From NCBI GenBank assembly GCA_000004985.1, contig GG738886.1: a stretch of 64,000 nucleotides of DNA, one strand, 5' to 3'. Positions 2,270 to 31,924 of this stretch are shown piece by piece; positions within the stretch are counted from its first letter, which is position 1, and each line of letters starts with the position of its first letter. The translations under genes were made by a program, and so were the position numbers. The notes under the pieces are model-generated. The model made no database searches. It saw only the letters and a program-made list of their open reading frames with translations, and was not told where the DNA came from. This stretch comes from Naegleria gruberi. Its lineage: Eukaryota.

Positions 2270-3874
2270 ATGAAGAAGAGCAGCAGCCACAATTTGATAA
2301 CCCTCTCACAACTCGAACAACACGACGGAGTGAAAAATTCACAACTCTGGATACTTCTCTATGGGAAAGTGTACGATATTACTGAATTTGCTGATAAACA
2401 TCCTGGTGGTCGTGAAATGATAGAAACAGCTTGTGCAAGAGATTCTACTGCACTGTTTGAATCGTATCATTTGTCATCCCATTCGATTAGTAGAATATTC
2501 TTGAGAGATGATGGGAATAATAATAATCAGTCGATGATTAAGTATATTGGTGAATTTGATGAAGAAACAAAGCAAGAAGATGTAAATGATTCCAAGATCA
2601 AGTTTAATTTCACAGATTACAAGATTGCAAAGAAACAAGAAAATAGAACGATGAATATTTATGAAATTTTGAAAGAGCAAATAAGAAATGACTTGTTTAT
2701 TCCTGCCCTTACAAGACAAGATTTTAATCTTAACATTAGAAGGGTTTCTCTCTTGAGATTGTTGAATGCAATCTTCATTTTCTCAGGGTTGTTAGCTTGT
2801 CAGCTTTTATCTCAATACTTGACAGGATTACACCTGTCACTTGCCATTATTCTAGCATTCTTGGGAGGTGTATTTCACCACTTGTCCCTTGTCCACGTTG
2901 CTCATGATGCTGGACATGGAAGTTTCACAGATTTCCCAACCTTGTGGAGAATGATTGGACATGGTTGTTCCTATTTGTTGGGACAATCATTCTATCTTTG
3001 GACCATTAGACATAACATTGCTCACCATGTGTAAGTAGCACTTAACTTTAGCAATTAGATTAACATTTATAGATATACGAATATGAGTGAAATCGATCCA
3101 GATATCAGTATTTATGAAAGAGGTAACGTAAATTCACAAGAAAGATCACTACCTGATAAAAAGTATCCTAAATCAGGAGAGAAAACCTCCACCCCAATCA
3201 AGATTATGTCTGTAACTGGTTCAATTGTATTTTTACCAATCATGTATAGTTTAGTTATTGTTTATATGCAACTTAAGGATTTGGCACATTATTGGAGGAG
3301 ACGTGTTAGTGATGGTGTTGGATTTGCATCCCCAACTTGGAGCTTTACAACATTCCATTTCTATGCAAGTAAGATTGTCTTTGTAATGTACCGATTAATC
3401 TTGCCAATGGTCCTCTTTTACTCTACAGATGGTCATTTCGGTAGAAATGCATTAGAATCTGTACTGATATTTAGTGTTACTGAAGTTGTAGCAGGTCTGT
3501 TATTTGGTTTCTTTTCTCAAATCAATCACATCTCTGAGAAGTGTAAATTCAGTCACTTGAAGGAAGGAGCCCTCAACAATAGAGACGAATTGGATTGGGC
3601 AACTATCCAAATCACAACAAGTGTCGACTATTGTCATGACAGTTATTTGTGGACCTATCTATCTGGGTTTTTGAACCACCAAGTTATTCATCACTTATTT
3701 CCAAGTATTAACCCATGGCTATATCCAAAGATTGTTCCAATCGTTAAGAAAGTCTGTAAGGAGAATAACATTGAATATACCATTTACAACAACTTTTGGG
3801 ATGCTATGACTGCTCATGTGAGACAAGTGACCAGTTTTGTGGATACCAAGAAGCTTCTTGCTGAAATAAATTAA
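2270..3874 (+). CDS. Front-end fatty acid desaturase with N-terminal cytochrome b5 domain (delta5/delta6-type); exons 2270..3030 and 3073..3874, 42-nt intron 3031..3072 (GTAAGT..ATAG)
   Basis: Cyt-b5 HPGG heme motif (EFADKHPGGREM) at the N-terminus. His boxes HDAGHGSF and HNIAHH lie in exon 1. After the in-frame intron, exon 2 carries the third box QVIHHLFP (QxxHH, diagnostic of front-end desaturases). The ATG at 2270 is preceded by caaaaaaaaa. Confidence 0.8.
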
Positions 3875-3876
3875 TT

Positions 3877-3993
3877 GGAAAATTTTATTTAAGCATTTTC
3901 TTAATAATGTGAGCCTTCCTAGCTCAGTTGGCAGTAGCGCTGTCCTAGTAAGACAGAGGTCTTGGGTTCGATTCCCAAGGGAGGCATTCTTTT
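3877..3993 (+). repeat. Direct repeat copy 2 (tRNA-Thr plus flanks), starts 2 bp after the desaturase stop codon
   Basis: See 1684..1800; the same 5' flank ggaaaattttatttaagcattttcttaataatgtga and 3' flank ttctttta. Confidence 0.6.
3913..3986 (+). tRNA. tRNA-Thr (anticodon AGU), second identical copy
   Basis: 74/74 nt identical to 1720..1793. Confidence 0.85.
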
Positions 3994-4206
3994 AAGGTAT
4001 AAGCAAACAGAATTGATATTGGATTGTGGACATCAGTTTGTTAGTTAGTAGCCCTGGTATAATACAAACCCTTTTGCACTGAAAAAGATTTTGTAAGTTG
4101 TGACGAACAACCACTCATATTTTGCTTGTGTGTATTGTATTTGTTTCGTATTTGGATGAATTAACTCATTCAAAATAAACAGTGGTCAAAGAATGAATTT
4201 AGGTTT

Positions 4207-8143: not shown

Positions 8144-8205
8144 TGTACATTTGAATTCTCAAACACAATGATTTTGACCTATCCTTAACTCGTAAAAATT
8201 GTAGT

Positions 8206-9210
8206 TTATTGGATGTTCAAACCAGTTGCCAAAATTGTTTGTTGTCTCAAACTCACAACAACTCGAAGCAATTTAGTTGCCAATTTCGAAGGTTGCTTTC
8301 CACTTGCTTTCTTAGTTTCCTTTACAAGAATTAACAAATCGACTGGAAGAGCAGCAAAAGGAATCACTCCCTTAATCACCAAACTAGCCAACGACAAGGA
8401 AGCACAATAATCATTGGTCATGAGTCCTGAATTCTTGAAATCCTTCTTTTGATTACCTGTTAAAGATTGAACAAAATTGAAAACATTTACAACACAATTA
8501 TTTCCAATGCTAATCATGCAAGAATCCATTTCTGGATATTTGGATCTTATCACATAGATGTGGGAAATTATTTCATTGACCATTTGTGTGTCCTTTGCTA
8601 ACAATTCTTGAACTTGTTTGGCAGTATTCTTGGCATGTTTCCATTCTTTGAAACTGGCCACTACTGCTTCTGTTGTTCCTGATCCAATAACTAGTAATCC
8701 AGTTCCTGTAGCCACTAGAGAACCTCCAAATGTGAGTGGACTTCCCAATAATCCTCCAACTTGGAATTATTTTCATCAAATTCGATTGAGTATGTTGTAA
8801 AACTTACGAATAAGTGCTGCCCCAACAAGATTGGTAGCCGTTCCGTTTGCTTTCTTCTTTGCAGCTTCTTGTTGTTGATAATCTAATGCATGAATCATTT
8901 GTTCTAGTACTGAGATTAATCCCAATCTTTCTTGAATCCATTCTTGAGTTTTTCTTTCAACATTTGAAAGTTGTTCACTCAATAGACTATTGGTTTGATC
9001 TGGTAAGTCATATTTCACAAAAGATTGGTTGTTTGGAGTGAAAGATGGCAATGGCTCCTTTTCATATGGATTAATAACTTGCTCCCTCAACGAGTTAAAT
9101 GATGGATAGCAAACATTACCAGATAAGAGATGTGAACTCTCATTGATTAATGACGAAAGTTCTGGTGCAGGGGTTGAATCTGCATTAGTTTCAGAGTATG
9201 GATAATACAT
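8206..9210 (-). CDS. ApoL-like (apolipoprotein-L family-like) membrane-hairpin protein A; exons 9210..8808 and 8759..8206, 48-nt intron 8760..8807 (GTAAGT..CCAAG)
   Basis: Splicing restores [71 protein letters not shown]. This is collinear with the paralogue at 11765..13090 and resembles the ApoL hydrophobic hairpin plus flanking amphipathic helices (recalled ApoL1: GTTIANVVSGSL...APFTEGGSLVLL...DYGKKWW). The later ALPVDLLILVKETKKASGKQPSKLATKL resembles ApoL1 VSFFLVLDVVYLVYESKHLHEGAKSETAEEL. Confidence 0.6.
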
Positions 9211-10924: not shown

Positions 10925-11258
10925 GAAAACTAATTGTACATTTTGCTAATAATACTTCGTACAAACCTATTATCCAAAAATTCTATTGAATGTTATTTGG
11001 AATTTTAAATTGCAATCATGTGAAATATTTCCGAAATCAAAAATAAAAAAATAAAAAATTAATTTTAATTCAATTTGGCAATACTGCTATTTGTATGTGG
11101 TATGGGGCAGAGAACAGTGAATAATAATGGCAACTCAACTCTTACCATCAAAGTTGAACTCTAGCATCAGTAAAGTTACTGGGCTATTTCTAGCTCTTTT
11201 TATGGTAAGTTCAATAAACTTGTTCTAATACTATTTTCTAGTGAAAATTACCAAGAAA

Positions 11259-11329
11259 TCGGGTGTGGTATAGTGGTAGCATTCCAGACTGTCACTCTGG
11301 CGACCCGGGTTCAATTCCCGGCACTCGAG
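11259..11329 (+). tRNA. tRNA-Asp (anticodon GUC)
   Basis: TCGGGTG acceptor pairs with CACTCGA. Anticodon stem CCAGA/TCTGG with loop CTGTCAC (GTC). T-arm CCGGG-TTCAATT-CCCGG. Discriminator G. A T5 run follows 6 nt downstream. Confidence 0.8.
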
Positions 11330-11538
11330 ATTAATTTTTGACTCTATCTCCACTACTTAAGTTTTAATTTTTTCCTCATATGAATACTGGCATGTAATCA
11401 CCTATTTTACAATTTTCAAATCTTCATCTCCTAATTCCATAGAAAAAATAGTCAAAGGTTAAACTCTTTAATTTTTCTTTCAAAAAATAATGGATGAATT
11501 TTTTGGCGTATATCATTGGTACTGATTATTCTTGAAAA

Positions 11539-11545
11539 GGAAAAA
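11539..11545 (-). terminator. Pol III T-run (TTTTTCC on the minus strand) immediately 3' of the 5S-like gene
   Basis: The plus-strand ggaaaaa abuts the gene's 3' end. Confidence 0.4.
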
Positions 11546-11645
11546 GACTACAGCACCACAGGTTCCCAAGTTGTCTCCAACCTCAGTACTGATGTGGCTC
11601 GACGATGCTTAACTTCTCAAACGGGATGAGGTGCATTATGTAGCC
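11546..11645 (-). rRNA. 5S rRNA-like gene (100 nt; variant with shortened helix II / loop B region)
   Basis: Reverse complement: GGCTACATAATGCACCTCATCCCGTTTGAGAAGTTAAGCATCGTCGAGCCACATCAGTACTGAGGTTGGAGACAACTTGGGAACCTGTGGTGCTGTAGTC. It matches conserved 5S blocks (CATCCCGT, GAAGTTAAGC, AGTACT..GGAGAC, GGGAAyA, GTGCTGTAG). About 20 nt are missing relative to a canonical 120-nt 5S between the 5' GGCTAC and CATCCCG. Confidence 0.55.
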
Positions 11646-11764
11646 AATCATTATTTTAAAATCTTAATATTGAATAAGAAATGATTTGGATATTGTTTTA
11701 AATTTCTTTGAATCTGGTACTTGTAATTAAAATCTGGTATGATTGTGGATAAAACTACAATTTA

Positions 11765-13090
11765 TTAAGGTAAGAAAGTACCAGTTGCTTTTGTTGTTTG
11801 TGCCTTGATTGATTCCAAGATTGGTGTTAATTTGGCAGCCAATTTAGAAGGTTCCTTTCCATTTGCCTTTTTAGATTCTTCAACCAAAATAACCATATCG
11901 ACAGGAATGGAGATGATTGGTACCATACCTTTAATCATTAAACTGGTCAAACTCATAATACCTGTAGCACCATTTGTCAATCCACCACGACTATCCAATC
12001 CTTGGTGTCTATGACCAATAAGGGCATCAACAAATTGTACAACTCCAATAGTGTTTGAGCCAACAGAAATGGTACGAGTATCAATGTATGGATCAGTAAC
12101 TCTGTACTCGTAAATCTTTTTAATCATATCATTGACATATTGAGTATCCTTTGCCAAGAGTTCTTGAATTGCCTTTGCAGATTTCTTGGCATGTTTCCAT
12201 TCGACAACTGAGGCAACAACACTTGTGGTTGTACCAGCTCCAACACATCCAAGACCAGCTCCTGTAGCCAAAAGCGAACCTCCAAGTGTAAAAGGAGCTG
12301 CTACGATACCTCCCACAATCAATGAAGCACCAACAATGTTTGTGGCAGTACCACCAACTTTGGCCTTTGCTGTTTTCTTTTGTTTCTTATCCAATGCACA
12401 GATCATATCTTCAAGCATTTTAATGATTTCCATACGTTTCTTGAGCCATTCTCTGGCAGATTCTTCAACAGCAACCAATCTCATTGCTTGTATCATGTTG
12501 TTATTAATTGGTGGAGGAACAACAGTGGTTGTTTGTTGCACTACAGAAACAGGTGTCATTGGTGAGACAGTCTTTTCAACAGTTGTGGTTGTTTGTTGTA
12601 CAAATTGACCAGTTGGAGTCATTGGTTGGCCGAATTGAGATTGCATCATTTGAGGTTGTTGTTCCATGTATTGAGGATTCATACTTGGTTGTTGTGGATA
12701 GCCATGTTGCATCATTTGAGGTTGACCATATTGTGGAGGTTGTTGGTACATTCCTTGCTGTTGTGGATAACCTTGTTGGTATTGTTGATATTGTGGTTGT
12801 TGCATACCTGGTTGTTGAGGTTGTTGAGGTTGTTGTTGGTATTGTTGTGGTTGCATACCTTGTTGTTGTGGATAGCCTTGTTGTGATTGCATCATTTGAG
12901 GTTGACCATACTGGGATTGTTGCATACCTTGTTGTTGTGGATACATTCCTTGTTGAGGTTGTTGTGGATAACCTTGTTGAGGAGGGTATTGTTGATATTG
13001 TGGTTGTTGGACTCCAGGTTGACCATATTGTGGAGGTTGTTGCATACCTGGTTGAGGAGTTTGTGGAGAGTATTGTTGTGGTTGGTGCAT
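11765..13090 (-). CDS. ApoL-like protein B with prion-like Q/P-rich N-terminal extension, 441 aa, single exon
   Basis: ATG at 13090 in acaaaacaaaATG context. N-terminal about 165 aa are Q/P/Y/G repeats ([13 protein letters not shown]...). This is followed by [74 protein letters not shown] and [27 protein letters not shown], paralogous to 8206..9210 and ApoL-like. Confidence 0.65.
12600..13085. repeat. Coding low-complexity CAA/CCA(TTG/TGG)-rich repeat encoding the Q/P-rich domain of ApoL-like B
   Basis: Degenerate tandem repeats of ttgttg/tggttg on the plus strand. They generate spurious antisense ORFs (12508..13143 etc.). Confidence 0.6.
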
Positions 13091-13564
13091 TTTGTTTTGT
13101 GTTGAAAAATTATATGACTCAAGTCTGTTATTTAGCCTGTTGATTCGTATGAATTCTTTGGTCCGTTGTAACATTCGGAATGTCATTGTCCAATAAAAAT
13201 ACAATGAGAAAGTGACAGAAACAAGTTGCAAAATACAATTGTGGCAATTCAAATATGATTTGTGTGTTAATTGCCAAAAAGTCGAATTATTGTCTTACGA
13301 AAGGAAACATATGCATGTTACTTGGTTGATTTGATCAAGAAAATTGGCAATTCACATCCAAATGTGATTTGATAACTTGTTTGTGCATTCTAAAAGTATT
13401 CTGTTGTATCAACCAAGTTGCTGTTGTAAAGTCTAACTACAGTCAGAGTTGGTTTTAATTGAAGTTTTCCCATAATCCACGTACAGATTTCTTTTTAATT
13501 GCATATGGCACTTCCAAAGCTCCTCTCAATACTTTCAGAATATCAATTCCCATACTAACAAGTT

Positions 13565-14658
13565 TTAGTTTAAATCAAATATACTAGTAACTACGTACAA
13601 TATCCCAATAATACCTGCAATTTGTCCTAGTAGTCCTTCTATTGATGATGTAACCACCTCTTGAATCTTATTCTCATTCAATGAAGAATAGGCAACTGAA
13701 ATTACCACAACATGAGGATCAATCTCAGTCAATTCGACAATGGACAATAACGAATCCCATCTTACAAAAACTGTATCTGGATTTTCTACTGAGGGTTTCA
13801 GTGTTTCTGTCAAAACTTTGGTCAAGATGAAATAATTGTCAACCCCAGAAATGGCAAAATTAGTTTCTGAGAAAACTTTTGGAATGGTTCCAGGCTCATG
13901 GAAGCTTACTTGTAGACCGAATCGTGTATCTCTTTCTATTGGAACAGGAGGAACACTAAAATAGAATGAAATAGTACCAGCATATCCCGTCGCGTTGGCT
14001 TTTTGAAAGCTTAATATCAAAGATTAATAAACTACACATACCTGCAAGAAGAGATGATCCATTGTTGAATACATAGCATGAGAATAATTGACCATTCTGA
14101 AAGATGGTTACAAAATCATACGGAATTTCAAAAGTTTCAACAATTCCCAGCTCACCATTCACTTTGGAAATTAAACTTTAAGGTTAAATTACAATAGCTA
14201 CAATCAACCATAGCATTCCAGTTGCATATCGAAATGGCTGGAAAGTACAATGGCACCGACTCTACAAAGGATGTTGATGTTGTTGGATTGTTTTGAGAAG
14301 TGATGAATTGCTGAGAGGCATCTACACTATACCAAATGCATAGGGCAATTGAGATGAACCAGCCAATAATTGTTATCACTTCTCCAATAGTAAAAGGACA
14401 ACTAGCTAGCAGCCTAATGGTGGATGTCTTATTTTTCAAATCCTTCTCTTCAAAATTCGAGAAAGCTATAGGCATTGTCTTGTAATCTTTTCCTTCATCT
14501 TGATTGGTTTGATAATGCACCTGTCTGTTTCCTTCATTAACATTCATCGATGGTTGTTCCTCCTCTTGTATGTTGTTTTGTTCTACGATATTGTCATTCC
14601 GAATGATAGTATTATCAACAACATCGTCATCATGGTGAGGTTGAATTTGTTGGGACAT
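13565..14658 (-). CDS. ENaC/degenerin/ASIC-family-like channel subunit, about 336 aa, 3 exons (14658..14202, 14161..14042, 13998..13565; introns 14162..14201 of 40 nt GTAGCT..AAAG and 13999..14041 of 43 nt GTATGT..AAAG)
   Basis: TM1 is followed by PLYFPAISICNWN (family signature FPAVTxC). The spliced exon 2 gives NGELGIVETFEIPYDF...FSCYVFNNG (compare ASIC AGELLALLNNRYEIPD...GKCYTFNSG). Exon 3 has GLQVSFHEPGTIP...FAISGVDNYFIL (palm-like). It ends with EGLLGQIAGIIGILYVVTSIFDLN (compare TM2 [27 protein letters not shown]). Three ORF-track ORFs in different frames are reconciled by two short introns. Confidence 0.6.
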
Positions 14659-15763: not shown

Positions 15764-16423
15764 TTTATTAGAATGTTGAAGTAAATGTATGTAATGGAAC
15801 GTACCTAAAGCATCGTGATATTGAATGTTTTTTTTCAAAATTACTTTTTAATTTTTCTTTTATTTTTCAAATTTTAAAGTTTAACGGTAAATATGGGAGG
15901 TGCTGAGATTATTTTTGTTGGTAAAACCAAACAACGTTGCAATTCTCTAAAACCGATTCAATCATCATCTTGCTATACAATCACAAAGAACTCAATTCAA
16001 GGTTTAATTCATCATTAATTAAATTGAAATACCAAATGCAAGTTTTGATAGGACTTCCATTCAATGATTTACTGTTTCGACTTGCTATAGTAATCCTATA
16101 TCCCATTAAGGAATTTGGACCCCTCGTTTATCTCTCTTAATCCCATTCGGAAAGCAATCACCAAAACAACCTGAGAAACTAAGCTTTTGATCCTTAAGGA
16201 AAGCCTCAATTTCAAAAAAATTGGTGTAAGAAGAGACAGGGAGAGAATGCGATTCTTTTTGAAAAATCCAAATACTGGATATTATGATAAGGGGGCATCT
16301 ATATGTTTGTCCTTATCGGCCTTATTAGCAAGGTTGTTATCCTTATCATCATTATCTTTATTTTCAACATCAGGATTAATATCCTTAAAAAGTTGTGGTG
16401 ATGAGGAATTTTCTTCTATTAAG

Positions 16424-19400
16424 ATGCTATCATCATCACCGTCATCATTAACAAGTTTAAATAATTCTAATGGGATAAGAACAAGATCAAAGTATCATTC
16501 TTCATCATCCCTTGTACTTTTATTCATCATTATTTCAATGATACTAGTTTCATGTTTCATGTGTGAACCAATTCAGGCCATCTCTTGTAGTGGAATAGAT
16601 TCCAACGACCTCACTGCTTGCTCTGGGATGGGGACTTGTATTCAGGATGAAACATGCCAATGCCTTAACGGATATTCAGGCGCTAATTGTGAGTATGTGG
16701 AGTGTTTTGGAGTTACAAATGAACCTGGTAATGAGGTTTGCTCTCGTCACGGGCAGTGTTCATCACCAGACAATTGTCAATGCGATTCTGGGTATTATGG
16801 CTCTACATGTTCCATCACAACTTGTTTTGAGAAGTGGAGTAACTTGTCGAATAGCAACAACATTTGCTCTGGGCATGGTACTTGTTCATCATTGGACGTT
16901 TGTGAATGTAATGCTGGATACTTTGGTAGCGAATGTGAAAAGGATCTTTTCGCTGGGTACAAACTAATTAGTATTAGCCCAGTAGTGATAGCAAAAAATT
17001 CACCTGACAATGTTGAATTGAAAGCAAGTATTGCCCTTCCTTCAATGGTTCTATCCTCTGCCTACTCACACGATGGTTCACAACCTTTACCATTTGTTGT
17101 TTCCAACTCTACAACTTCTATTGTTATTACAGATACGGTAAATGATGCTTTTGGTCAATTGTTAGTTCAGGAAGCAGATAGAAAAGCAGGTGAACTTTAC
17201 AATCTTCCATGTGATTTTAACATTTCCAATCCCGACCAAGAACTCAATAGTTTGACCATCATTAGAAATGGTGGAGTCTATTGTTTTCCAAATGGTGTAA
17301 CTATAAGAGGACACACATTTATTATTGTCGGTACAGAAACAGTCCTTTTCAAATCTCCTTTTGTATATTATTATGGAGCTTCCTTTTACTATCTGGAATG
17401 TGCCTCCTATAGGAACGTTTTCTGGTTAACCTATGACCAAGGAGATAATGGAAACTTCTTTTCTGGAGATATTCATGGAACTGTTATTGGAATTTCTCCT
17501 TATCATGGAATTCAACTTTACGATAACTTGGTGGGGGCTGTATGGTACACTGGTGGAACAGATATGATTCTATTCGATGTGAATATTTTACCACCAATAA
17601 CCTTCAATTCAAATGAAAGTTTTAGTCGAGATGATTGCATGGAAACAAGTTGTTATGGAATTTCATTCCGATTGAATAATACTTGCTTTGGAAGAGGTCA
17701 TTGTGTGAAGAATGATACTTGTTTGTGCAATACGGATTCATACGGAAGTAATTGTTTAATTTCAATTTGTAATGGTGTCTACGGAAATGAAACCAATGTA
17801 TGTAGTGGTCATGGTGAATGCCAAAGTAAGGACAGTTGTGAGTGCGAAAGTGGTTATTATGGAAATTGGTGTGAATTGACCACATGTTTTGGAGTCCAGA
17901 ATGACCAGCCGAATACTTGTAATGGGCATGGATTGTGTTCCAAATTGGATACTTGTGAATGTGCTTCTGGTTTTGGATATGGTGGTTCAAGTTGTGAAAT
18001 TCCAATCTGTAATGGAACTATGGCTAATGAAAGTAGTGTTTGTCTATCAAGAGGTCATTGTGTCCAACCAAATATGTGTAGTTGCCAATCAAGTTATTCA
18101 GGGTCAAACTGTGAAATTGCTAATTGTTTTGGAATTATTTCAAATGACAGCTCAGTTTGTTCTGGTCATGGGTCTTGTAATTCTGTAGATACTTGCACTT
18201 GTTCCATTGAATACTACGGAGCCGATTGCTCACAATTTGATTGTTATGGCATTCAATCAGTGAATAGTTCTGTTTGTTATGGAAGAGGACAATGTATTAA
18301 TGTTAATACTTGTTCATGTTCACAAGGATACTATGGCAATGAATGTGAAATCTCCATGTGTGATGGTATTTTGGGCAATTCCTCCCAAGTTTGTTCTAGT
18401 TATGGACAATGCAAGGATACGGATGTGTGTGATTGCCAATTGGGCTATTTTGGTGTGTTTTGTAATGAAACAACATGTAATAGTATAGCAATGAATGACT
18501 CAACAGTATGTAATGGACAGGGAACTTGTTGGCCATTGGACACATGTGTTTGCTCCAATGGATATGATGGCTCTAATTGTCAAAATCCTATTTGCTTTGG
18601 AATTGTTTCCACTAATACCTCTGTTTGTGGAGGTCATGGAGTTTGTTCGCAACCAAATATTTGTCAATGCAACCAGGGATATTACGGATCCCAATGTGAA
18701 ATAGTCACCTGTTCTGGTATCATGTCAAATGGATCAACAGTGTGTTCAGGACAAGGGCAGTGTTCTGATATGGACATATGCCAATGCAACAACCATTACT
18801 ATGGATCTAATTGTGAAAAGTTTGATTGCTTTGGTGTATCCTCTCTCTTAAACACCTCATGCTCTGGTCATGGTACATGTCTTGATTACAATACTTGCCA
18901 ATGTTACTCTGATTATTATGGAAATAATTGTGATGTTACCAAATGTTATGGTATTTTCAGTAATTCATCCAATGTTTGTTCATCTAAGGGAAGTTGCCAT
19001 GTACGAGATACTTGTATCTGTTCGAATAATTACCACGGTTCTTATTGTAACATAACAAGTTGTAATGGAGTTTATTCTAATGATGCTTCAGTTTGTTCCG
19101 GTCATGGTTCATGTATTGGGTACGACACTTGTCAATGTTTGAGCGATTATTCTGGAAGTAATTGTCAAGGAGAAATAGTTGACCCATTTGCTGGATTTAG
19201 AATTATTTCAGATTCTTCAGTTTCAATTTCTATTGATTATTTCCTGACAGATTGGCAACCAGTTTTGCAATCCTATACTCGTTACTATGCCTCAAGTTTA
19301 CTTCTTAAAAGTATTTCCTATTTGGATTCAAATATTCAATATCTTCCACATTCGAGTGCAGTTATTCTAAACAGCACAAGTGCACAGGGCATCAATATTG

Positions 19401-22400
19401 TCAACAAGATGAAAACCATCAAGTCCCAGTTATTGGCTTCATTAACCTGCACTAAAACTTACACAAACACTAACTCTCCAAATACTTTTATAATCAAACA
19501 TGGAGGTGTAATTTGTTTCACAGGAGGAATGACATTCGGGCCAGAAAGAACTATTATCATTGTGGGAACAGAGCCTGTCATATTCAAACTCCCATCCTTG
19601 CAGTATAGTGCTCTTAATATTGTTTTTTTGGAATGTGCCTCATATAGAAACTTTTTCTGGATTTTGGATTCAAATAGTTTTATTAAGGGAGCAGATAAAA
19701 CAAAGAATTATCAACCACCAATTCATGGAACATTTATTCAACTCTCTGGAACTATTTCTTTGAGAGGTTACCTTGCAGGTAGTGTATGTGCTTCGAACAT
19801 CAATACTCTTCTCCACGAAGTCACATTTTATGATCCAACCACTTTTGACCCTTTCCAAAGTGTCACTTCACAATGTAATTACACCCTCTGTTACAACATT
19901 CTATCAAATAATCAATCAGTGTGTTCAGGTAAAGGTAATTGTTCTGATTACAACACTTGTGTTTGTAATACGGATAGTTATGGATCTGATTGTTCTTTAT
20001 TTAAGTGTAACGGAATTTTGAGTTCAAACTCAACTTTTGTTTGTAATGGAAGAGGTAAATGTGTAGGGCCAGATGTCTGTTCCTGTAATCCAGGTTATTA
20101 TGGAGATTTTTGTGAGCTGACCACATGTAATGGAATTGAAAATACCTCGCCTCTTGTTTGTAATGGAAGAGGTGCCTGTAATCATTTCAATAGCTGTTCC
20201 TGTAGCTCTACATTTGGGTATGGTGGATCAGATTGCGATATTCCAATTTGCTATCAAAAACTTGCAACCAATCGTTTAGTTTGTAGCTCAAGAGGTGATT
20301 GCTTGGGACCAAATGTTTGTAATTGTACCGAAACTTATCTTGGTGATAATTGTCAACTGACCACTTGTGCTGATATACTTTCAAACTCTTCTCTTGTTTG
20401 TTCAGGCTTTGGATCATGTGTTGGCTATAACAATTGCACCTGTCATACAGGTTTCTATGGAGAAACTTGTGCAGAATATGATTGTTTCGGAGTTAATAAG
20501 AATAATCCAAATGTTTGCTCTTCAAAAGGCGAATGTATTACTGTTAATAACTGCACATGTCAAGATGGCTTTTTGGGTAATAATTGTTCCTACACTACTT
20601 GCTTTGGAGTAAGAAGTGATTCGCCTACAGTTTGTAATTCGAAAGGTTCCTGTAGAGCCAAAGATGTTTGTGAATGTTGGAATGGATATTTCGGAAGTAA
20701 TTGTACTCTGACAAGTTGTGGAGGGATCTATTCAAATGATAGCTCTGTGTGTAATGGACATGGTTCTTGTTGGCCAGCGGAAACCTGCACTTGTTTATCT
20801 CAATATGGATATACAGGTCAATTGTGTGAAATTCCAATTTGTTATACCATAGCAGCTAGTGATCCTTTAACCTGTTCTTCTCATGGCTCCTGTGTTGGTG
20901 TCAATACATGTGAGTGCCAAGCAAATTATACTGGATCCAAGTGTCAAGTTACATCATGTCAAGGAATTCTATCAAACGGCTCACTTGTTTGTTCTGGGCA
21001 TGGTTCATGTATTGAACATGATAATTGTACATGCCTAGCTGGTTACTTTGATACCGCCTGTAATCAATTCACATGTAATGGAACCAACTCCCAAGACAGC
21101 TCAGTTTGCTCTGGAAAAGGAAGTTGCGATTCATATAATAATTGTTCTTGTCAAGCGGGCTATTATGGACCTAATTGTGAAAAGACAATGTGTAATAACA
21201 TTTTGAGTGATAATCCATCTGTGTGTACATCTCGTGGTAATTGTATTGCCCCAGAAGTTTGCAGTTGTAATGAGACTTATTTTGGTACTAATTGTGAGTT
21301 GACTACTTGCAATGGAACTGTTTCAAATAGCAGCTCGGTATGTTCAGGATCAGGAGTTTGTTGGCCATTCGATACCTGCACTTGTTACTCTGACTTGGTC
21401 AGAGAATTCGAAGGTCAATGGTGTGAAAAACGTTTGTGGGATCCTTTCGCTGGATATCGAATGGTATCTCACAATGGTTTAGTTTACCATTTTGATGATA
21501 ACAACAATTTCTACACTCCTGATATTCATACCAATACTAGATATTATCGTTCAAGTATGATTTTAGATATACTTACAAAGATAACACCTACACTCAATTA
21601 CACATCTGATAATGGAGCTCACATTGATAGTGTTAATACTCCCAAAGCATCAGCCTTGGCTGCACTTATGAAAAAGAAAGGTAATTCCATGTGGACACTT
21701 CCATGTACTAAAACAGTTAACAATTCAAGTGATTTGCCATGGATTAGTAAGAGTGAAATTATGATTCGTCACGGAGGTGTTTTCTGTTTCAATATTGAAG
21801 CTTCTTTTCACAACAATATAACCATTATCATAGTTGGAGCTGAACCTGTTGTTATGAAAGTTCCTTCAATTCAATACTCTGCAGTCAACTTTGTATTTGC
21901 AGAATGTGCTTCTTATAGAAATTTGTTTTGGTTTATCACAAGTTATAATCCAAGTTTCATTCAAGGAGGAAATAGAGGGACTGGATATGAGCCTCCAATT
22001 TATGGAACTTTCTTCCCAACCTCAGGTGGTTCCTTCCAACTTGCTGGTCCTTTTGCAGGAAGTGTTTGGGTAACCGGTAATGCATGGACTGTTTTTATTG
22101 ATGTTACTGTTTATCCACCATTGTCAACTGATCCATATGAACCAACAGTTGGTCAATTTTGTAATTATACTCAATGTTTCAATGTTAAATCTAATTTGAA
22201 TACTACATGTTCCGGTAGAGGTCAGTGCATTGATTATAATACATGTGTTTGCAATGCCGATGCTTATGGAGTTGATTGTTCAATCTCCAAGTGTAATGGC
22301 ACATTTAGTAATGTATCAACTGTTTGTAATGGACATGGTTCATGTATCGCTAAAGATACTTGCCAATGTAATACAGGATACTATGGAGAATGGTGTCAAT

Positions 22401-25400
22401 ATACAACATGTGGAGGAATTGAAAGCACTTCACCATTGACTTGTAGAGAAAGAGGTACTTGTATTGCCTATAATCAATGTTCTTGTAATGTCACCAAAGG
22501 ATACAATGGTAATGACTGTGAAATTCCTTATTGTAACAACATTTTGGGAAACACTTCAACTGTTTGCAGTGCTCATGGTTCTTGTGAATTGCCAAACACG
22601 TGCAATTGTTCAGCAAACTATTTTGGAACATTTTGCCAATATACCACTTGTGCAGGCATTGAAACATATAATTCATCAGTTTGTATTGGTAGAGGTCAAT
22701 GTACACTTTACAATAATTGTACTTGTAACTCACCTTATTATGGATCCAATTGTGAACAATTCAAGTGTTTTGGAGTGAATAACAACTCTAGTACTGTTTG
22801 TTCTGGAAGAGGTATCTGTACAGATTATAACACCTGTGTTTGTAATGCTGGATATTTAGGATCGAATTGTGAAATTTCATCCTGTTTTGGAATTTTAAGT
22901 AATGTGTCCCTTGTTTGTAAAGCTCATGGAGTTTGTGTAGCTACGAATACTTGTGTCTGTGCTGCTAATTACATGTCCAGTGATTGTTCTGTGACTTCCT
23001 GTTCAGGAATCAATTCAACTTGGTCTTCAGTATGTCATGGAAGAGGTTCATGTTGGCCTTACAATACATGTAATTGTAATGCCAAATTGGGTTACACTGG
23101 AAATGATTGTAATGAGCCAATGTGTGACGGTCTTACAAACTCTGATCCTTATGTTTGTAGCGGAAGAGGAGGTACTTGTGTTTCTCCTAATCTATGTGTC
23201 TGTAACGATCCATCAAAATATTTTGGTAAATTGTGTGAATACACCTATTGTCGAGGTGTTCCAACCAATCTTACTGACACAGCACTCTTCTGTTCTGGAA
23301 ATGGTATTTGTACAGACTATAATTACTGTTATTGTTTTAGTGGATATACAGGAACTGAGTGTGAGTTGGATATGTTTGCAGGTTACAGATTCGTCACCAA
23401 TAAGAATGTTTATGTTTTGAAGAATCAGATTTATTACTTGCCTGCCAATATCGCCATAGGCCCAATGTTGAGTGCTGCTGGGCAGAAGACATACCTTCCT
23501 TACCAACAAGCAGTGAAAACCAATTTGAGAGTTGATGCTACATTGTTGAATGAGCTCCAAATGAGAGCTATGGGTTTAAGGTATAATTTCTTCCCTTGTG
23601 AACATTATATCAAGGACGCTTCAGTATTTGGAAAGAACATAGAATTGAGGGGAGGTGTGTACTGCATTCAGAATCCATGGACAATTGATGGACATAACTT
23701 TACCGTAATTGGTAAAAAACGAACCATTTTTACACTTCCACAGCTGATATATAAATCAGCAAAGTTCACCTACTATGAATGTGCATCTTATAGAGATGTA
23801 ATATTTTATGCCGGTGAAACTACTGGCTACAGCAATTTCACAGGACCTATCGATGCAACCATTTTTGTAAATTCACCAGGTGCAGCAGATTACTACGTGA
23901 ACGGTGATATTAATGGAGCAATCTATATATTTGGAAAACTTGGATCTAACGATGCTCCACCTACTGGTACTGTCTACACTACAGATATGAAATTTATTGC
24001 ACCATACACATTTGATCCAGCTGTTAGATACATTGAATCCAAGTGTAATTATTTCACATGTTTTGGAATTGGCTCTAATATCAATACTACTTGTTCTGGA
24101 AAAGGAAAATGCATAGGCATTGATACTTGCTCATGTATTTCTGGGGCGTATGGGCCTGATTGTTCTCTCAGAATGTGTAATGGAACTTTAGGAAACTTTT
24201 CCAATGTTTGCAGTGGTCATGGTTCATGTATTTCCACTGATATTTGTCAATGTAATGCAGGATTTTATGGGCAATGGTGCCAATACACAAAGTGTTATGG
24301 ATTAGAAAATACTTCTCCAACTGTTTGTTCAGGAAGAGGTTCTTGCTTGTCTGAAAATAATTGTATTTGTAATTCTACTTATGGATACGAAGGTTCACAA
24401 TGTGAAACTCCAATTTGTGGTGGACAATTGGGTATTTGTGCTAGTTCAAGCAGAGGAAATTGTACAGCTCCTGACACTTGCTCATGTTTGGATCATTATA
24501 GTGGTCAATTTTGCCAATGGACTACTTGTAATAGCGTACCTTCTAATTCATCAAGTGTTTGTTCTGGAAGAGGAATATGTGCTGCATATAATACTTGTCA
24601 ATGTAAAGCAGGATATATTGGATCGATCTGTGAAAAGGATGTCTTTGCTGGATACAAATTAATTAGTAACAAGGCAGTTCTTTTAGCAAAGAATTCAAGA
24701 GCTAGCTCTGTGCTGGCAGCAAGTATTGCCCTTCCTTCAATGACAATTAGACCACCAACATTTTTAAATCCAGATAAGGTCTATCCATATGTTGCAAGTG
24801 GTAAGTCTGTAATTACAAAGCCAACCGATTCCTACTATCAAACTTTAATGACCGAATTATCAAAGAAATTCGATGAGCTCATGTCCGCTCCTTGTGACTA
24901 TGTAATTTCAAAACCAGATACTGAAATGGGTCAGAAAATTCTCATTGAGCATGGTGGCGTCTATTGTTTCCAGAATGGTTGGAACATTAATGGTCAAAAG
25001 TTTACAATTGTTGGAACTGAGCCAGTTATTTTCAAAGCTCCATATATCAAGTATTCTGGAGCTAACTTTGTATATTTGAAGTGTGCTTCATATAGAAACG
25101 TGTTTTGGGTCACTCAATACTACAACTTGACTGGCAGAGTAAATTGGGTTAACAGTAATTCATTTTCTGGAACAGTTCATGGCACAATAGTTGCTAGATA
25201 TGGGTATGATTATTTAGTTTCCGATGATATACAAGGAGCTATTTGGTTTTATACTCAAGAAGATGGATATATCACTTTGAAAGATGCTAAACTTACAACA
25301 CCTCCAACATTTGATCCTTACATGCCATATGTTACTGGATCTTGTGATACTTATACTTGTTTTGGTATTGATCCAACTTCGAATATGAGTTGCTCAGGTA

Positions 25401-28400
25401 GAGGTGTCTGTAAAGATTACAATACATGTACATGTCAAGATGATTCCTATGGTATTGATTGTTCCATTTCTAAATGTTATGGAATTTTTGGAAATGTGTC
25501 AATTGTTTGTTCCTCTCATGGTAATTGTACATCAAAGGATACATGTACATGTAGTGAAGGATACTTTGGAGACTTGTGTCAATACACTTCATGTGCTGGC
25601 ATTCCAAATAACTCTACAAATGTCTGTAACCAGAGAGGTGTTTGTAATATTTACAATTCTTGCACTTGTAACACAACTTTGGGTTATGATGGATCGAATT
25701 GTCATGTTCCAATATGTAATCATCTAGTAGGAACATGTACAGATCTATTCAGAGGTAACTGTACTGCTCCTAATGCATGTTCATGTGAAAATCATTATTA
25801 TGGGCCTTGGTGTGAAAAGACAACTTGTGGTGGATTTGAGTCAACTAATACACAATCTGTTTGTAATGGAAGGGGTAATTGTACAGCTTATGAAAAGTGT
25901 ACCTGTTTACATGGATATGCAGGAGCATTTTGTGAAGAGTATAGTTGTTTTGGAGTTGTGAGAACTCTTCCGTCAACTTGCTCTGGAAGAGGAGCTTGTT
26001 CTTCAATTGACCAATGTGATTGTAGCGCAAATTATTATGGATCTAATTGTGAAATTAGCAAGTGTAATGGTAAATTTGGAAATGAGTCTACAGTGTGTAG
26101 TTCTAATGGTCAGTGTATTGAGACAAATATTTGTAATTGTTCAGAGCATTATTATGGAAATTGGTGCGAAAAGACGACTTGTTTTGGAGTTGCTTCCAAT
26201 GAGTCAAATGTTTGTTCACATAGAGGACAATGTAAAGCATTCAATACTTGCCAATGCAATCAAAATTACTTTGGAGATAATTGCGAGTTGACTACTTGTA
26301 ATAATCTTGCTTCAAACTCTGGTTTGGCTTGCAATTTGGTTGGCAATTGTACAGATTACAATACATGTGTTTGTCCTTATGGATATACTGGTTCATGGTG
26401 TGAACAGACTACTTGCTTTGGTGTAGCCACAAGTTCTCCAAGTGTTTGTAATGGACATGGTAATTGTACAACTATGGATATGTGTAGTTGTGATCCTAAA
26501 TATGGTTATGGTGGAAGTAATTGTAACATTACAACATGTGATGGAGAATTGTCTACCTCTTCTCAGGTCTGTAACTCACATGGTACATGTATTGGACCAA
26601 ATCAATGTCAATGTGCTCCACATTATATTGGTGACAATTGTCAAGTGACAACTTGTTTTGGAATTCTGTACAATGACTCTAGTGTTTGCTCAGGAAAGGG
26701 TTCTTGTGATGGATTCGATAACTGTACATGTGAACTTGGTTATTCTGGAGCAGAATGCGACCAGTACACATGCAGTGGAGTTTTCAATTCAAATCCCTTA
26801 GTTTGTTTCGGTAGAGGAAACTGTACTGAATATGATATCTGTGTTTGTGAAGCAAATGCCTTTGATTTTGATTGTTCTGGTGTTTCTTGTAATGGATTTA
26901 TCAATGCAGATCCAATGGCTTGTTCTTCACATGGTTCATGTACCCAAAATCAATAGTGTAATTGCTCTGAAAATTATCATGGTGAATGGTGTGAGCTCAC
27001 AACTTGTAATGGAATTGATTCGAATAGTACTGAAGCATGTTCTGGAAGAGGAAGATGTGTAGATTATAATAGTTGTGTCTGTTCGAATGGATACTATGGG
27101 GATGACTGTCAGGATTACAATTGTTATGGTATTTCACATTTTTCAAATTTGACATGTTCCGGATATGGTAATTGTTCCGATATCGACACATGTGAATGTT
27201 TTGAAGATTCTATTGGTTTAGATTGTTCCGTCAACGTTTGCAATGGTCTTCCTATGAATTCCTCATTAGTTTGTTCAGGACTAGGCAGTTGCACTCGACC
27301 AAATTATTGCAATTGTTCAGATAACTATTTTGGAAGTAATTGTGAATGGACCACATGTTATTCCATCGCATCATTCTCTCCATCCACATGTTCTGGAAGA
27401 GGAAATTGCTCTGATTTTGATAAGTGTATATGTAATTCTGATACATTTGGTTCCGATTGCTCTCTCTTCAAATGCAACCACACCCTTGGCAATGAAACTC
27501 AAGTTTGTAGTGGACGAGGTTCATGTATTGGCACTGATGAGTGCAATTGCACTGAGAATTATCACGGAGAGTTTTGTGAATTTACTGAATGTTTCTCTCA
27601 ACTTTCTAATGAAAGTTCAGTTTGCTCTGGAAAAGGAAAATGCATTGAGTTCAATAATTGTTCATGCCAAGATGGATATTTCGATCAAGATTGTTCTCAA
27701 TTCCAATGTAATGATACCTTCAGCAATGAAACCACAGTTTGCTCCTCAAGAGGTTTTTGCATTGATTCGAACAAGTGCAATTGCTCAGAAAATTACTTTG
27801 GACTGAATTGTGAATTGAGCATTTGCTTTACAATTCTTTCTAATGACAGCAGAGTTTGTTCTAGAAGAGGAATTTGTGTTGATTATCAAAACTGCTCATG
27901 TTATGATGGATTTTATGGTGAAAGTTGTGAGTTTGCTGTAAGTGCAGTGAACAATCAATCAAATTCCACTCAATTGAATAATCAAACTATTGATTCCAGT
28001 AATGTAACCATGAATAATAATTCATCGGTGGTTTTTAACAATACTGATAACAGTACAAATACTGATAATAGTAGTGTTGTGGTCACTAATCACACAATTT
28101 CAGAAGACAATACAACACGTTCTAATTCAAATGGAACTGTTTATAATAACAATAGTACAGACCTTTCTAATGAAACAATTTCAAATAATGGAACAGTTTC
28201 TGCTAACGCAAATGTTACTATCCCTGACAATTCTACTTCTTCCACTAATCAAACTGTTTCTCCAAGTACTGATTCATCAAATGGAACTGTTTCCAATAAT
28301 ACTGTAAATGCAACAGCTTCTGATAATACTACCACTGATAATTCCAACATTACAATTTCGGATAATACCACTTCACCTGGATCCAATAATCAAACTATTT

Positions 28401-31400
28401 CTCCAAGTGTTGATTCATCAAATGGAACGATTTCAAATAACACTAATCCTTCGGTAGTTTCGAACAGCTCAACTGTTTCAAACTCTTCTTTTACTAACGG
28501 AACAGTTTCCAACAGCACAGTCACTTCAAATAGTAGCACAATTACTTATAATACCACAATTTCATCAAACGAAACAATTTCGGTTAATGTAACAAGCAAC
28601 ACATCAAAAATTACAAATTCAACCTCAATCTTGAACGAAACTGTTCCTGTAATGCCTGAGCCTGATGTTGTGGTTGCTTTGCCGGTTGCAATTATAAAAC
28701 GAATGAGCTCGAACGTGTTCAGCTCATGCGATGATATTAGAGTGGATGGCTCGCAAAGTTTCTCACAAGATTCGACCTATCTTGACTATTATTGGAATTT
28801 ATTGGAAGCAAGCTCTTTGACTAGTTTACAAAGTTTGCCTAATAGTCCAATCATTGTCATTGACTCTACATTGAAGCCAGGACAATATGTTGTTTCACTA
28901 AAAGTTGGAAATGGAAGAAATAGTTCAGTGAACTATTCGAAACCTTTCACCAAGTCAGCAAATCCACTTCCAAAGATTTATATTGCTAATTCTTTGATTG
29001 AAAAGTATGGAAATCAATTCCCAGTAACCATCAAGAAAGTTATCACAGAATCAACTTGCCAAAAGGAAAAATCAGTAATTAGTTGGAGTCAATTAAGTGG
29101 ACCAACAGTTAAATACTCAATTGACAGTTTCAGTAATCTTGCTATTGCCTCATTGACTACCTATGGTTTCCATACTTACATCTTCCAAGTTTCAGCTCAT
29201 TACCCTTCAAATCCATTAGAAAGAGTTTCTGCCAATGTAACACTTGTTACAAAATCTCCTGAATTGCAACTTGAATTATTGACAACTGATGCAAATTCTA
29301 ATTACACAACTATTGTAATTGGATACACAGATCCAGAGAGTGCTTATAATACTCTTTCTGAGGAATGGAAATGGACTTGTTTGAATAATACGAATCCAAG
29401 TTTAATTTCCTTCTTGGAATTGATTTCTAAAAACAAGCAAACTGAAGTTAGATTTGATGGTTCATCACTATTTCGTCAAAACATACCTCGCTCTATTGAA
29501 CTATCTTTAAGAATTTCCAAGTCTGATAGAACAATCTCCAAGTCAATTATAGTTTACTTTGGATTGGTTCCACCTATTGTAAATATTATTTCAGTAGAAC
29601 CAAGCACTTTGTACGTTCTTCCTGGAGAACCTCTCAGTATTCAGACATTAGTCACCAAAGGAAATGTTAATGTTACATTGAATGGACAAGTTGTTGAAGT
29701 ATCCGATCAACAGCCAACCTTGGATGTTGACACTAAACTATTAGAACAAGGTTCTGAAAATACAATTACAATCACATCGACTGATCCAGTGACTGGAATG
29801 TCTAGCTCTTCAAGCTATACTTTCAAAGTTGCTACCTATCCGAAACCATGTGCTTGTTTCATTTCTCCTTTAAGTGGAATTGCATTAGAAAGCGATTTTG
29901 AATTCTATTGTACGAATTGTAAAAATTCAGAAAATAATATTGACTATCGATATGGATTTATAGATGACAGATCCGAAACAAGAATTCTATTATTCGATTC
30001 TGGTGAAATTTATGCTTCCAAGTTGCCATCTCCATTTTCTGGAAATACTGTCAAATGTTTCTTTGATATTGTCGATACAGAGACAGGTGCTTTTACAACA
30101 GTTTACAAAAATGTCACTATAGAAAAACCTCTCGTTACAAAAGTCGAACAAGTTCAAGGACTAGTCGAATCATGGACTATTGTGGGATCCAACTATTTCA
30201 GTAATGGAGATTTCAGTAAGAGTATTTATCAATGTGCTTCAACTTCAAGAACTGATTCAGTTTTATTGAGACAGATATTAGGAAATGAATATTTAGAAAG
30301 ATCAGAAAGTATTGAATGTGAGAATGGTGTTGATATTTCAGGAGTGTGTAAATGTCATGATGGATATATTGGTAAACATTGTGATAAGGCGATTAGTGAC
30401 TTTTCTAATATTCAAGGTACTAAATTGCAAGTACTCAGAGAAATGGTGACCATTGCCAATAGCACTGGTGAAATGAATAATCAATATTTGTCATTGCTGT
30501 CATTTGCCATTGATTCGATACTTGTCAATTATCAATATTTAGATACAAATACTATATCTGAATCAATGTATACTTTGAATATGTTTTTGGAATATTCCTT
30601 ATCTGATGAAAGTTTGAGATTACCAACCGGGGTTGATAAGTTATTAGAATCTAGTCAATATTCAACATTTAATTACATTACTGATAAGCAATACCTTACT
30701 GATCAAACGTCAAATGCCTTAAAATTATTGAAATCTCTCAAATTGTCATCTCAGTTACAAGCAAGATCTGTTTCCATGTCAAATGCCAAGAGAAACATTA
30801 AGGGATCATTCTTTAGTATAGTTTTGGGTAAGAGCTTGTTAGCTGATCATCAAAATAATATTCAAGATCCCCATTCATCTTCGTCCATAAGTATGGAGAA
30901 TGGTTTCTTTGCTTATACTGCAAGATCTAAAGTTTCATCTATCAAAAAGCCATATATTTACATCCTGTCTGTGACTGATGACATTTACTCATTGGGAACT
31001 AAACTCAAAGTTGTGGAAAAGAATAACAATGTTCAAAAGGTTTCAAATTTGGTTTCTCCAATAGTTTCTGTAGATTTTGTGGATGTTGCCACTACCATGA
31101 ATCCAACAAAAATAATTTATTCGATTCCAATTAATTTGAATGGATCAACATTTGAATTGAGAAGAGGAACTTTTGATTTATCAGTCAAGACACTGGACCA
31201 GTATTGTAAAAACTTTGATGAAGGTTCTATTAAAGTTCTTTCAGACTGTACCTTAATTTCATTGACTGCAACACATGCCAAATGTCAATGCTCCAAATTT
31301 ACAAATGTATTTGTTATTGAAACAACGACCATTTCAACTTATTCCTACACCTACTTGGCAGCTATTGGTTTCTCTCTTGTAGCTGTCTGTTCCATTGGAA

Positions 31401-31924
31401 CCTTGGTAATTCTCTCAGTTTGCGTATGGTGGAAATTCAAGAAACCTAAACTTTCCAAAAAGAGAAGTCTTGTCTTTACGGATGCCTCTGAAAATGAGAT
31501 TCAACTCAGAATTCAAGAAATTATTCTCGGAGACCATACATACAGTAATTCAGAAACTAACTCTGATGATTCATTGATTATTGATGTGATAGATGATTGT
31601 CCATCAGGAGGAAGCAGTGGAACAGGTTCAAATAATGGAAGAATGAGAAGTTATTCAATGCAAGAAAGACCAACCACAATGATGAGTTCATCCTCTCCAA
31701 GAGGTGGAGTTGGTGCCAATATACTTTCATCTTCACCAAGAGGAACAAGAAATCGTTCATCTTCAGTTGCTCCATTGATTATTCAGGAAAGCCATGAATT
31801 GGATTCGAATGCATCAAGTTCTGATGAATTATTAAAGAATCATTCAGAGGGAGGTGTTAAACGATCTGGAAGTGGTATTTGGGATTTGAGAGAAGATGGC
31901 TTTCTAGAACATGAAAAATTTTAA
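16424..31924 (+). CDS. Giant (about 5,170 aa if read through) type-I membrane protein with about 100 tenascin/laminin-type EGF repeats, a mucin-like stalk, a GPS-like motif and a single C-terminal TM. Single exon; interrupted by one in-frame TAG at 26954..26956 (ORF-track ORFs 16187..26956 and 27149..31924 share one frame).
   Basis: A putative signal peptide follows the ATG at 16424 (LVLLFIIISMILVSCFMC). The repeat is C-S-G-x-G-x-C-x(5)-C-x-C-x(3)-Y-x-G-x-x-C-E with NxS/T sequons throughout. A non-EGF module (FAGYKLIS...HGGVYCF...IVGTEPVIFK...ECASYRNVFW) recurs 5x at nt about 16943, 19190, 21440, 23380 and 24640. An N/S/T-rich stalk spans 27950..28650. TM is YLAAIGFSLVAVCSIGTLVILSVCVWW (about 31345..31430), then a Ser-rich tail. 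Confidence 0.7.
27950..28650 (+). repeat. Low-complexity Asn/Ser/Thr-rich segment (dense N-glycosylation sequons) encoding the mucin-like stalk of the giant protein
   Basis: NQSNSTQLNNQTIDSSNVTMNNNSSVVFNNTDNSTNTDNSS...; imperfect repeats (SNGTVSNNT... recurs). Confidence 0.5.

Follow-up and report, generated by a model that had tools for sequence, protein, structure and literature searches.

The minus strand of the Naegleria gruberi NEG-M contig GG738886.1 carries, at positions 11546-11645 of the 64,000-nt stretch of DNA analysed here (the window), a 100-nt sequence derived from 5S rRNA, which begins with GGCTAC, ends with GTAGTC and is followed directly by a run of five Ts. The question raised by this locus is what such a short copy is: a 5S gene of the organism, a small RNA that descends from one, a mobile element in the making, an error in the assembly or a dead gene. 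According to our analysis it is very probably a young 5S pseudogene specific to NEG-M, that is, a member of a dispersed family that was disabled by two internal deletions of 16 and 5 nt. The features on which the argument depends are collected in the table below.

Features of the 5S-derived copy and its neighbours (positions are those of the window)
Feature	Position	Strand	Description	Basis
TATA-like AT-rich element ATATTAAGA (putative)	11662..11670	-	at -25..-17	
Junction of deletion 1	11639..11640	-	16 nt (GGCCATATCACGATGT) absent between C11640 and A11639	pairwise and three-way alignments
Junction of deletion 2	11621..11622	-	5 nt of loop C absent, TCTGA (equivalently CTGAT)	alignments
Box A-like segment AGTTAAGCATCGTCG	11600..11614	-	fits the consensus quoted in PMC3369914	
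Intermediate element (IE)	11593-11598	-		sequence
Box C-like segment GAGGTTGGAGACAACTTGG	11566..11584	-	helix V / loop E / helix IV region, intact	
T5 run, Pol III terminator-like	11541..11545	-	directly after the 3' end	
tRNA-Asp(GUC)	11259..11329	+		ARAGORN; Rfam, 57.1 bits
Gene for a Q-rich protein with an ApoL-like domain	11765..13090	-	upstream neighbour, synteny anchor	Pfam PF05461, E = 1.1e-9
Gene annotated EFC41343.1	10421-10924			

Read from 11645 down to 11546, the minus strand gives GGCTACATAATGCACCTCATCCCGTTTGAGAAGTTAAGCATCGTCGAGCCACATCAGTACTGAGGTTGGAGACAACTTGGGAACCTGTGGTGCTGTAGTC and then TTTTTCC. An earlier note, made from the letters of the sequence, had described the locus as a 5S-derived gene of the Pol III type with an internal deletion and with an intact 3' half and terminator, and this core reading holds. 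The conserved blocks that it listed, namely GGCTAC...GTGCTGTAGTC, CATCCCGT, GAAGTTAAGC, AGTACTGAGGTTGGAGACAAC and GGGAAC, are all found on this strand, as is the TTTTTCC that directly follows the 5S-like block. It had also proposed a search with the Rfam 5S family (RF00001). This search returned a match at 11545-11649(-) with 38.4 bits, which is a marginal pass since the gathering score is 38; the E-value was 2.3e-4 over the whole 64-kb window and 1.5e-6 over the local 401 bases. In the Rfam alignment the half formed by helices IV and V and loop E is fully paired and intact, the gaps fall in the 5' strand of helix I, in the 5' strand of helix II and in loop C, and the pairs of helices II and III are flagged as broken. 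Scanned with Rfam at a lenient threshold, the whole window gave five tRNAs and no other RNA families, no further 5S fragments and, even at E <= 0.5, no second 5S match.

Regarding the surroundings, the window has around 34% G+C and is dense in eukaryotic genes, including one for a MAD1-like protein, and three of its ORFs are exact matches to the NEG-M proteins EFC41342.1, EFC41343.1 and EFC41349.1, all encoded on one contig of 358,576 bp; the window is thus nuclear DNA of NEG-M. The tRNA-Asp(GUC) gene, one of the five tRNA genes, is convergent with the 5S copy and lies about 215 bp from it, the distance given in the earlier note; we regard it as context and not as part of the element. On the other side lies the ApoL-like gene. 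An exact-protein look-up found no counterpart on record for its product, whose best match under the name N. gruberi is only 67% identical, and its closest match is a metagenomic protein (P0001, ENA). This protein is 100% identical to it over the queried 264 C-terminal residues and differs over the full length by one substitution and a 3-residue indel. The annotation of NEG-M may lack the ApoL-like gene or may model it differently.

Elsewhere in the window we observed two tRNA-Thr(AGU) genes (1720-1793 and 3913-3986) with identical Rfam alignments, which sit inside a 125-nt direct repeat (1682-1806 and 3875-3999, 97% identity) whose copies are 2,193 bp apart. The repeats bracket two ORFs, 2270-3034 and 3083-3874, both of which fall in the 90%-identity cluster of XP_002674085, a 506-aa 'delta 5 fatty acid desaturase', and therefore they probably belong to a single gene that a short intron interrupts. 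There are also two very long uninterrupted ORFs in tandem, 16187-26956 (+) with 3,589 aa and 27149-31924 (+) with 1,591 aa.

The comparison that decides most of the question is with the locus that encodes P0001, a 3,229-bp metagenome contig (L001, ENA ERZ929261). Aligned with window positions 11310-14385, this contig is 97.9% identical, with 19 substitutions and 9 indels in 3.1 kb, and represents the orthologous locus in a strain closely related to NEG-M, around 98% identical to it. Other contigs of the same run (L007 and L008, with relatives of the EFC41343.1 gene) are 98.2-98.8% identical to the window. The strain in the sample is thus 1.2-1.8% divergent from NEG-M, so the sample was not NEG-M itself. 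At this site L001, too, has the ApoL-like gene upstream and tRNA-Asp on the other side, and between the two it carries an intact 5S of 122 nt (2721-2842, RF00001 93.8 bits). In both the pairwise and the three-way alignments, the window copy shows no substitution relative to this intact gene and differs from it only by the loss of two blocks, one of 16 nt and one of 5 nt, and the flanks on either side of the copy are collinear with L001 and unique. The retained bases are those of the intact 5S at the orthologous locus, which establishes descent from a 5S gene; a chance match had been considered and was rejected on the same grounds, as all 101 retained bases are identical.

We also noted where these contigs end. 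L001 tracks the window up to 11310 and diverges beyond this position, at or inside the tRNA-Asp gene (L001:3075-3229), and L007 and L008 both end before tRNA-Asp, L007 stopping at 11250 (the region compared was 11250-11329 of the window). The ends of L001 and L007 at tRNA-Asp are probably an assembly break induced by the repeated sequence of a multi-copy tRNA gene; in another reading, the sister strain may be arranged differently beyond tRNA-Asp.

As for the deletions themselves, the earlier note had estimated that about 20 nt were missing from the helix II / loop B segment. The size was close, the loss being 21 nt, whereas the anatomy has to be corrected, because there are two blocks, one taking in helix I, loop A and the 5' strand of helix II and the other lying in loop C. 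On the Rfam alignment of the L001 gene, the first deletion cuts 3 nt off the end of the helix I 5' strand and takes out loop A together with the 5' strand of helix II. The junctions read GGCTAC|ATAATGCACC and CATCCCGT|TTGAGAAG (in short, GGCTAC|ATAATG and CCCGT|TTGAG), with a microhomology of 0 nt at the first and 1 nt at the second. Other indels of 1-9 nt separate NEG-M from the sister strain nearby, and since indels between the strains are common here (9 in 3.1 kb), small deletions are a normal class of mutation in the region. Nevertheless, two deletions within 40 bp and with no substitutions are an unusual cluster where the background is around 9 indels per 3.1 kb, and point to a single complex event or, with less likelihood, to an artefact.

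In order to know which of the two forms is the ancestral one, a third 5S is informative. An exact-pattern scan with the 3' half of the 5S gave a single match in the JGI metagenomes (L006) and none in viral contigs or in prokaryote genomes. In L006, RF00001 finds a canonical-type 5S of 119 nt (539-657, 106.3 bits). The gene next to this 5S has its best named relatives in proteins of Willaertia magna (52%) and N. lovaniensis (58%), and therefore, as judged by this neighbour, L006 is a related heterolobosean and not N. gruberi NEG-M. The earlier note had asked for a comparison with a canonical 5S, and the matching blocks prove to be identical both in the intact 5S at the same locus of the sister strain and in that of the related heterolobosean. 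The L001 gene differs from the L006 gene in loop B by a 3-nt insertion and one change, and in loop C by a C-to-T change, which falls inside the segment deleted from the window copy. In the three-way alignment the loop B sequence is ATAATGC in the window and in L001 versus AAAGC in L006. Since this variant is common to the window and L001 and absent from L006, L001 does not owe its intact gene to a recent conversion by a canonical copy; full length is thus the ancestral state, and it was in the NEG-M lineage that the deletions occurred. In view of these alignments, we take the common ancestor of NEG-M and the sister strain to have had a full-length, slightly divergent 5S at the locus. As the intact form had already diverged (93.8 versus 106.3 bits), drift of the copy may have set in earlier than the deletions.

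The loss is also seen in the predicted structure of the RNA. The two intact 5S RNAs, from L001 and L006, both give the Y-shaped fold (-43.3 and -40.9 kcal/mol, with z = -3.0 and -2.7). The minimum-energy fold of the deleted copy has neither helix II nor the Y shape, and its -32.6 kcal/mol is no significant gain in stability over shuffled sequence (z = -1.8); the orphaned 3' strand of helix II pairs elsewhere. Thus, neither the three-way junction of 5S nor the arm of helices II and III is predicted to form in the deleted RNA. A canonical 5S has a three-way junction at loop A and a length of about 115-125 nt, whereas this copy has 100 nt and has lost loop A and the helix II 5' strand. Formation of the 5S RNP uses loop A, helix II and helix III with loop C of the 5S rRNA. 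With loop A, helix II and part of loop C gone, the RNA would be unfit as 5S rRNA, and we would expect it to be unable to enter ribosomes through the 5S RNP with uL18 (L5). A 5S pseudogene is recognised by functional 5S ancestry together with a lesion that disables the structure; here the ancestral state is preserved in L001 and the predicted fold is lost. Among the options left by the earlier note, a dispersed 5S pseudogene is therefore the one that the evidence favours.

The earlier note had considered the internal promoter regions intact, and as far as the sequence goes they are, given that box A, the IE and box C are all retained. Box A and the IE fit the consensus given in PMC3369914, the box C-like segment has two mismatches to it, and the sequences of a type-1 Pol III promoter are present. 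The box A-like segment lies at +32..+46 in the deleted copy versus +53..+67 in the intact copy at the locus, and the deletions bring it 21 bp nearer to the upstream TATA-like element. This element has a counterpart in L006 (ATTATAGAA at -24..-16), and the T5 run is also found in L001, L006 having T4 at the same place. Feng et al. (PMC3369914) reported that N. gruberi 5S genes have an upstream TATA box and an internal control region, and that TFIIIB and TFIIIC, and no TFIIIA, were found in the organism. Since the TATA-like element, box A, IE, box C and the T5 run are untouched, it is possible that Pol III still transcribes the copy, although the shortened spacing may weaken or shift initiation. 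For the 5S gene of Xenopus, Sakonju, Bogenhagen and Brown (1980) are reported to have constructed mutants with internal and 5' deletions. In Xenopus, deletions upstream of about +50 keep the control region and transcription, which starts at a fixed distance from that region. The likeness to our case is that deletions upstream of about +50 spare the internal control region. However, the Xenopus system is a vertebrate one that depends on TFIIIA, whereas in N. gruberi no TFIIIA was found and there is a TATA-like upstream element (PMC3369914); for these reasons, the outcome in Naegleria is not to be assumed from Xenopus.

We also observed a short motif, ATTGTAGTTT, three times in the window where 0.4 would be expected: 8198-8207 (+), 11752-11761 (-) and 48521-48530 (-). 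One copy lies just past the stop codon of the ApoL-like gene and another adjoins tRNA-Trp, a 30-nt inverted repeat (8196-8225 and 11734-11763) reflects this same motif, and a similar sequence, ATTGTAGTTTTAT, follows the 5S terminator in L006 (~520-535, -). The motif could be a 3'-end signal or chance.

The possibility that the short form is an artefact of assembly, cloning or sequencing, the NEG-M locus being really intact with 122 nt or else heterozygous, seems to us unlikely. The deletions are supported by one assembly only, presumably a multi-fold Sanger shotgun, and a Sanger shotgun does not typically err by leaving deletions of 16 and 5 nt in the consensus between unique flanks. The artefact would fit with the odd pattern of two deletions without substitutions, with the intact sister-strain contig and with the 5S being a repeat, of which some 279 putative copies are reported by the account in PMC3369914. 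Nevertheless, the copy is bordered on either side by unique, collinear sequence, and the other indels of 1-9 nt found nearby are real differences between the strains. We consider it very unlikely that the copy has become a functional small RNA, that is, a Pol III transcript of around 100 nt with an acquired non-ribosomal role. The promoter elements and the terminator are retained, and the half with helices IV and V and loop E still pairs. However, the gene is intact in a strain that is around 98% identical, and as no base of the copy has been substituted since the two separated, selection on such a role has had no time to act and has left no sign; the fold does not rise significantly above shuffled sequence, as given above, there is one copy within the window, and the deletions excise no clean structural domain, leaving the helix II 3' strand unpaired by its partner. 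The chance is fainter still that the deleted copy gives a stable 5S-derived RNA of about 100 nt which, for example, sequesters uL5/uL18 or acts in trans, maybe as one of a set among the listed copies of ~98-106 nt.

It is hardly credible that a retroposed 5S copy, or the progenitor of a SINE, was inserted beside the tRNA gene. 5S-derived SINEs are known in vertebrates, SINE3 of zebrafish being one, and there is another Pol III gene, tRNA-Asp, at about 215 bp. The resemblance to SINE3 is that of a 5S-related sequence with an internal Pol III promoter, whereas the NEG-M copy has no LINE-like or other tail past its T-run, where the downstream flank is collinear with L001, and it has no second copy in the window. 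The sister strain has a full-length 5S at this very site, between identical flanks, which means that the short form is the outcome of a deletion in situ rather than of an insertion. The origin as a SINE or by retroposition is thus effectively refuted by the intact gene at the same site and by the collinear flanks. A 5S-derived SINE is defined by a 5S-related head with an unrelated body or tail, by target-site duplications and by many dispersed copies of one structure, whereas the copy shows no such tail and is the only one in the window. The chance that this is the normal, naturally short 5S of N. gruberi is practically nil, given that it has in its favour the marginal pass of the Rfam threshold and nothing else. 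Against it stand the intact 5S genes of 119-122 nt, with 94-106 bits, in the sister strain and in the related heterolobosean. Furthermore, in PMC3369914 the N. gruberi 5S has 118 nt and most of the hits listed span 117 nt, so that the intact copies and the published gene together refute this explanation. Two options of the earlier note, a variant 5S of the organism and a SINE progenitor, consequently find no support, because an intact gene stands at exactly the same site, between collinear flanks, in a strain that is ~98% identical.

For the pseudogene, the course of events would have been as follows. The ancestral gene at the locus was a full-length 5S of 122 nt, slightly off the canonical sequence in loops B and C. 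The two deletions, of 16 and 5 nt, then followed in the NEG-M lineage; with these stretches of helix I, loop A, helix II and loop C gone, the three-way junction and the helix II/III arm are no longer predicted to form, and the RNA would not be assembled into ribosomes. With the TATA-like element, the internal promoter sequences and the terminator untouched, a short transcript of ~100-120 nt could still be made, and it would probably be unstable.

Similar remains of 5S genes are found in other organisms. There is a truncated pseudogene in the oocyte 5S repeat of Xenopus, and dispersed 5S genes and pseudogenes occur in Neurospora and other filamentous ascomycetes. These have in common with the NEG-M copy a disabling lesion, and scattered members of such families may escape homogenisation. 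The differences are that the NEG-M copy has two internal deletions and no point mutations, and that its intact ortholog dates the lesion as very recent. Within its own genome, it resembles the dispersed 5S family of N. gruberi in organism, sequence family, TATA-like element, box A, IE and box C, T-run and a location outside the rDNA, and it departs from that family in lacking 21 internal nt and in that the 5S fold is not predicted. Feng et al. (2012) counted 279 putative 5S genes in the NEG-M assembly (PMC3369914). In their Table S1 the entries listed are spread over many scaffolds and are mostly hits of 117 nt; around 15 of those listed have only 80-112 nt, several of them 98-106 nt. Since short entries are already in the published list, a decayed copy is to be expected in this family, and the window copy may already be one of the short entries of that table.

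The positions of these genes also appear to change quickly. We searched around 100 kb around homologous genes for 5S sequences, covering loci with homologs of the ApoL-like gene in N. lovaniensis (L002), N. fowleri (L003 and L004) and a metagenome contig (L005), and loci with homologs of the gene next to the L006 5S in N. lovaniensis (L009) and two contigs (L010 and L011). At E <= 0.1 there was no 5S in any of them. The position of the 5S is therefore not conserved between the loci compared, and the positions of 5S genes, perhaps also their copy number, seem to differ between Naegleria species. As neither the related loci of N. fowleri and N. lovaniensis nor the three related contigs have a 5S, turnover of 5S positions in Naegleria would be fast.

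Regarding annotation, the appropriate label for the locus is 5S rRNA pseudogene, or deleted variant, rather than 5S rRNA gene, even though it just passes the Rfam threshold, and in general a score just above the gathering threshold should not prompt the annotation of a functional 5S. Beyond this, the significance is small, because 5S pseudogenes are a well-known kind and finding one is ordinary. What the locus offers is a clean and datable case of decay in a dispersed 5S family, with an intact ortholog in a sister strain and no other changes. If the stable small RNA were real after all, we would be seeing a 5S gene of a protist give rise to a new Pol III small RNA. And if the pseudogene is transcribed, it would be a natural internal-deletion mutant for the choice of start site in a 5S gene with a TATA element plus an internal promoter, in an organism in which no TFIIIA has been found.
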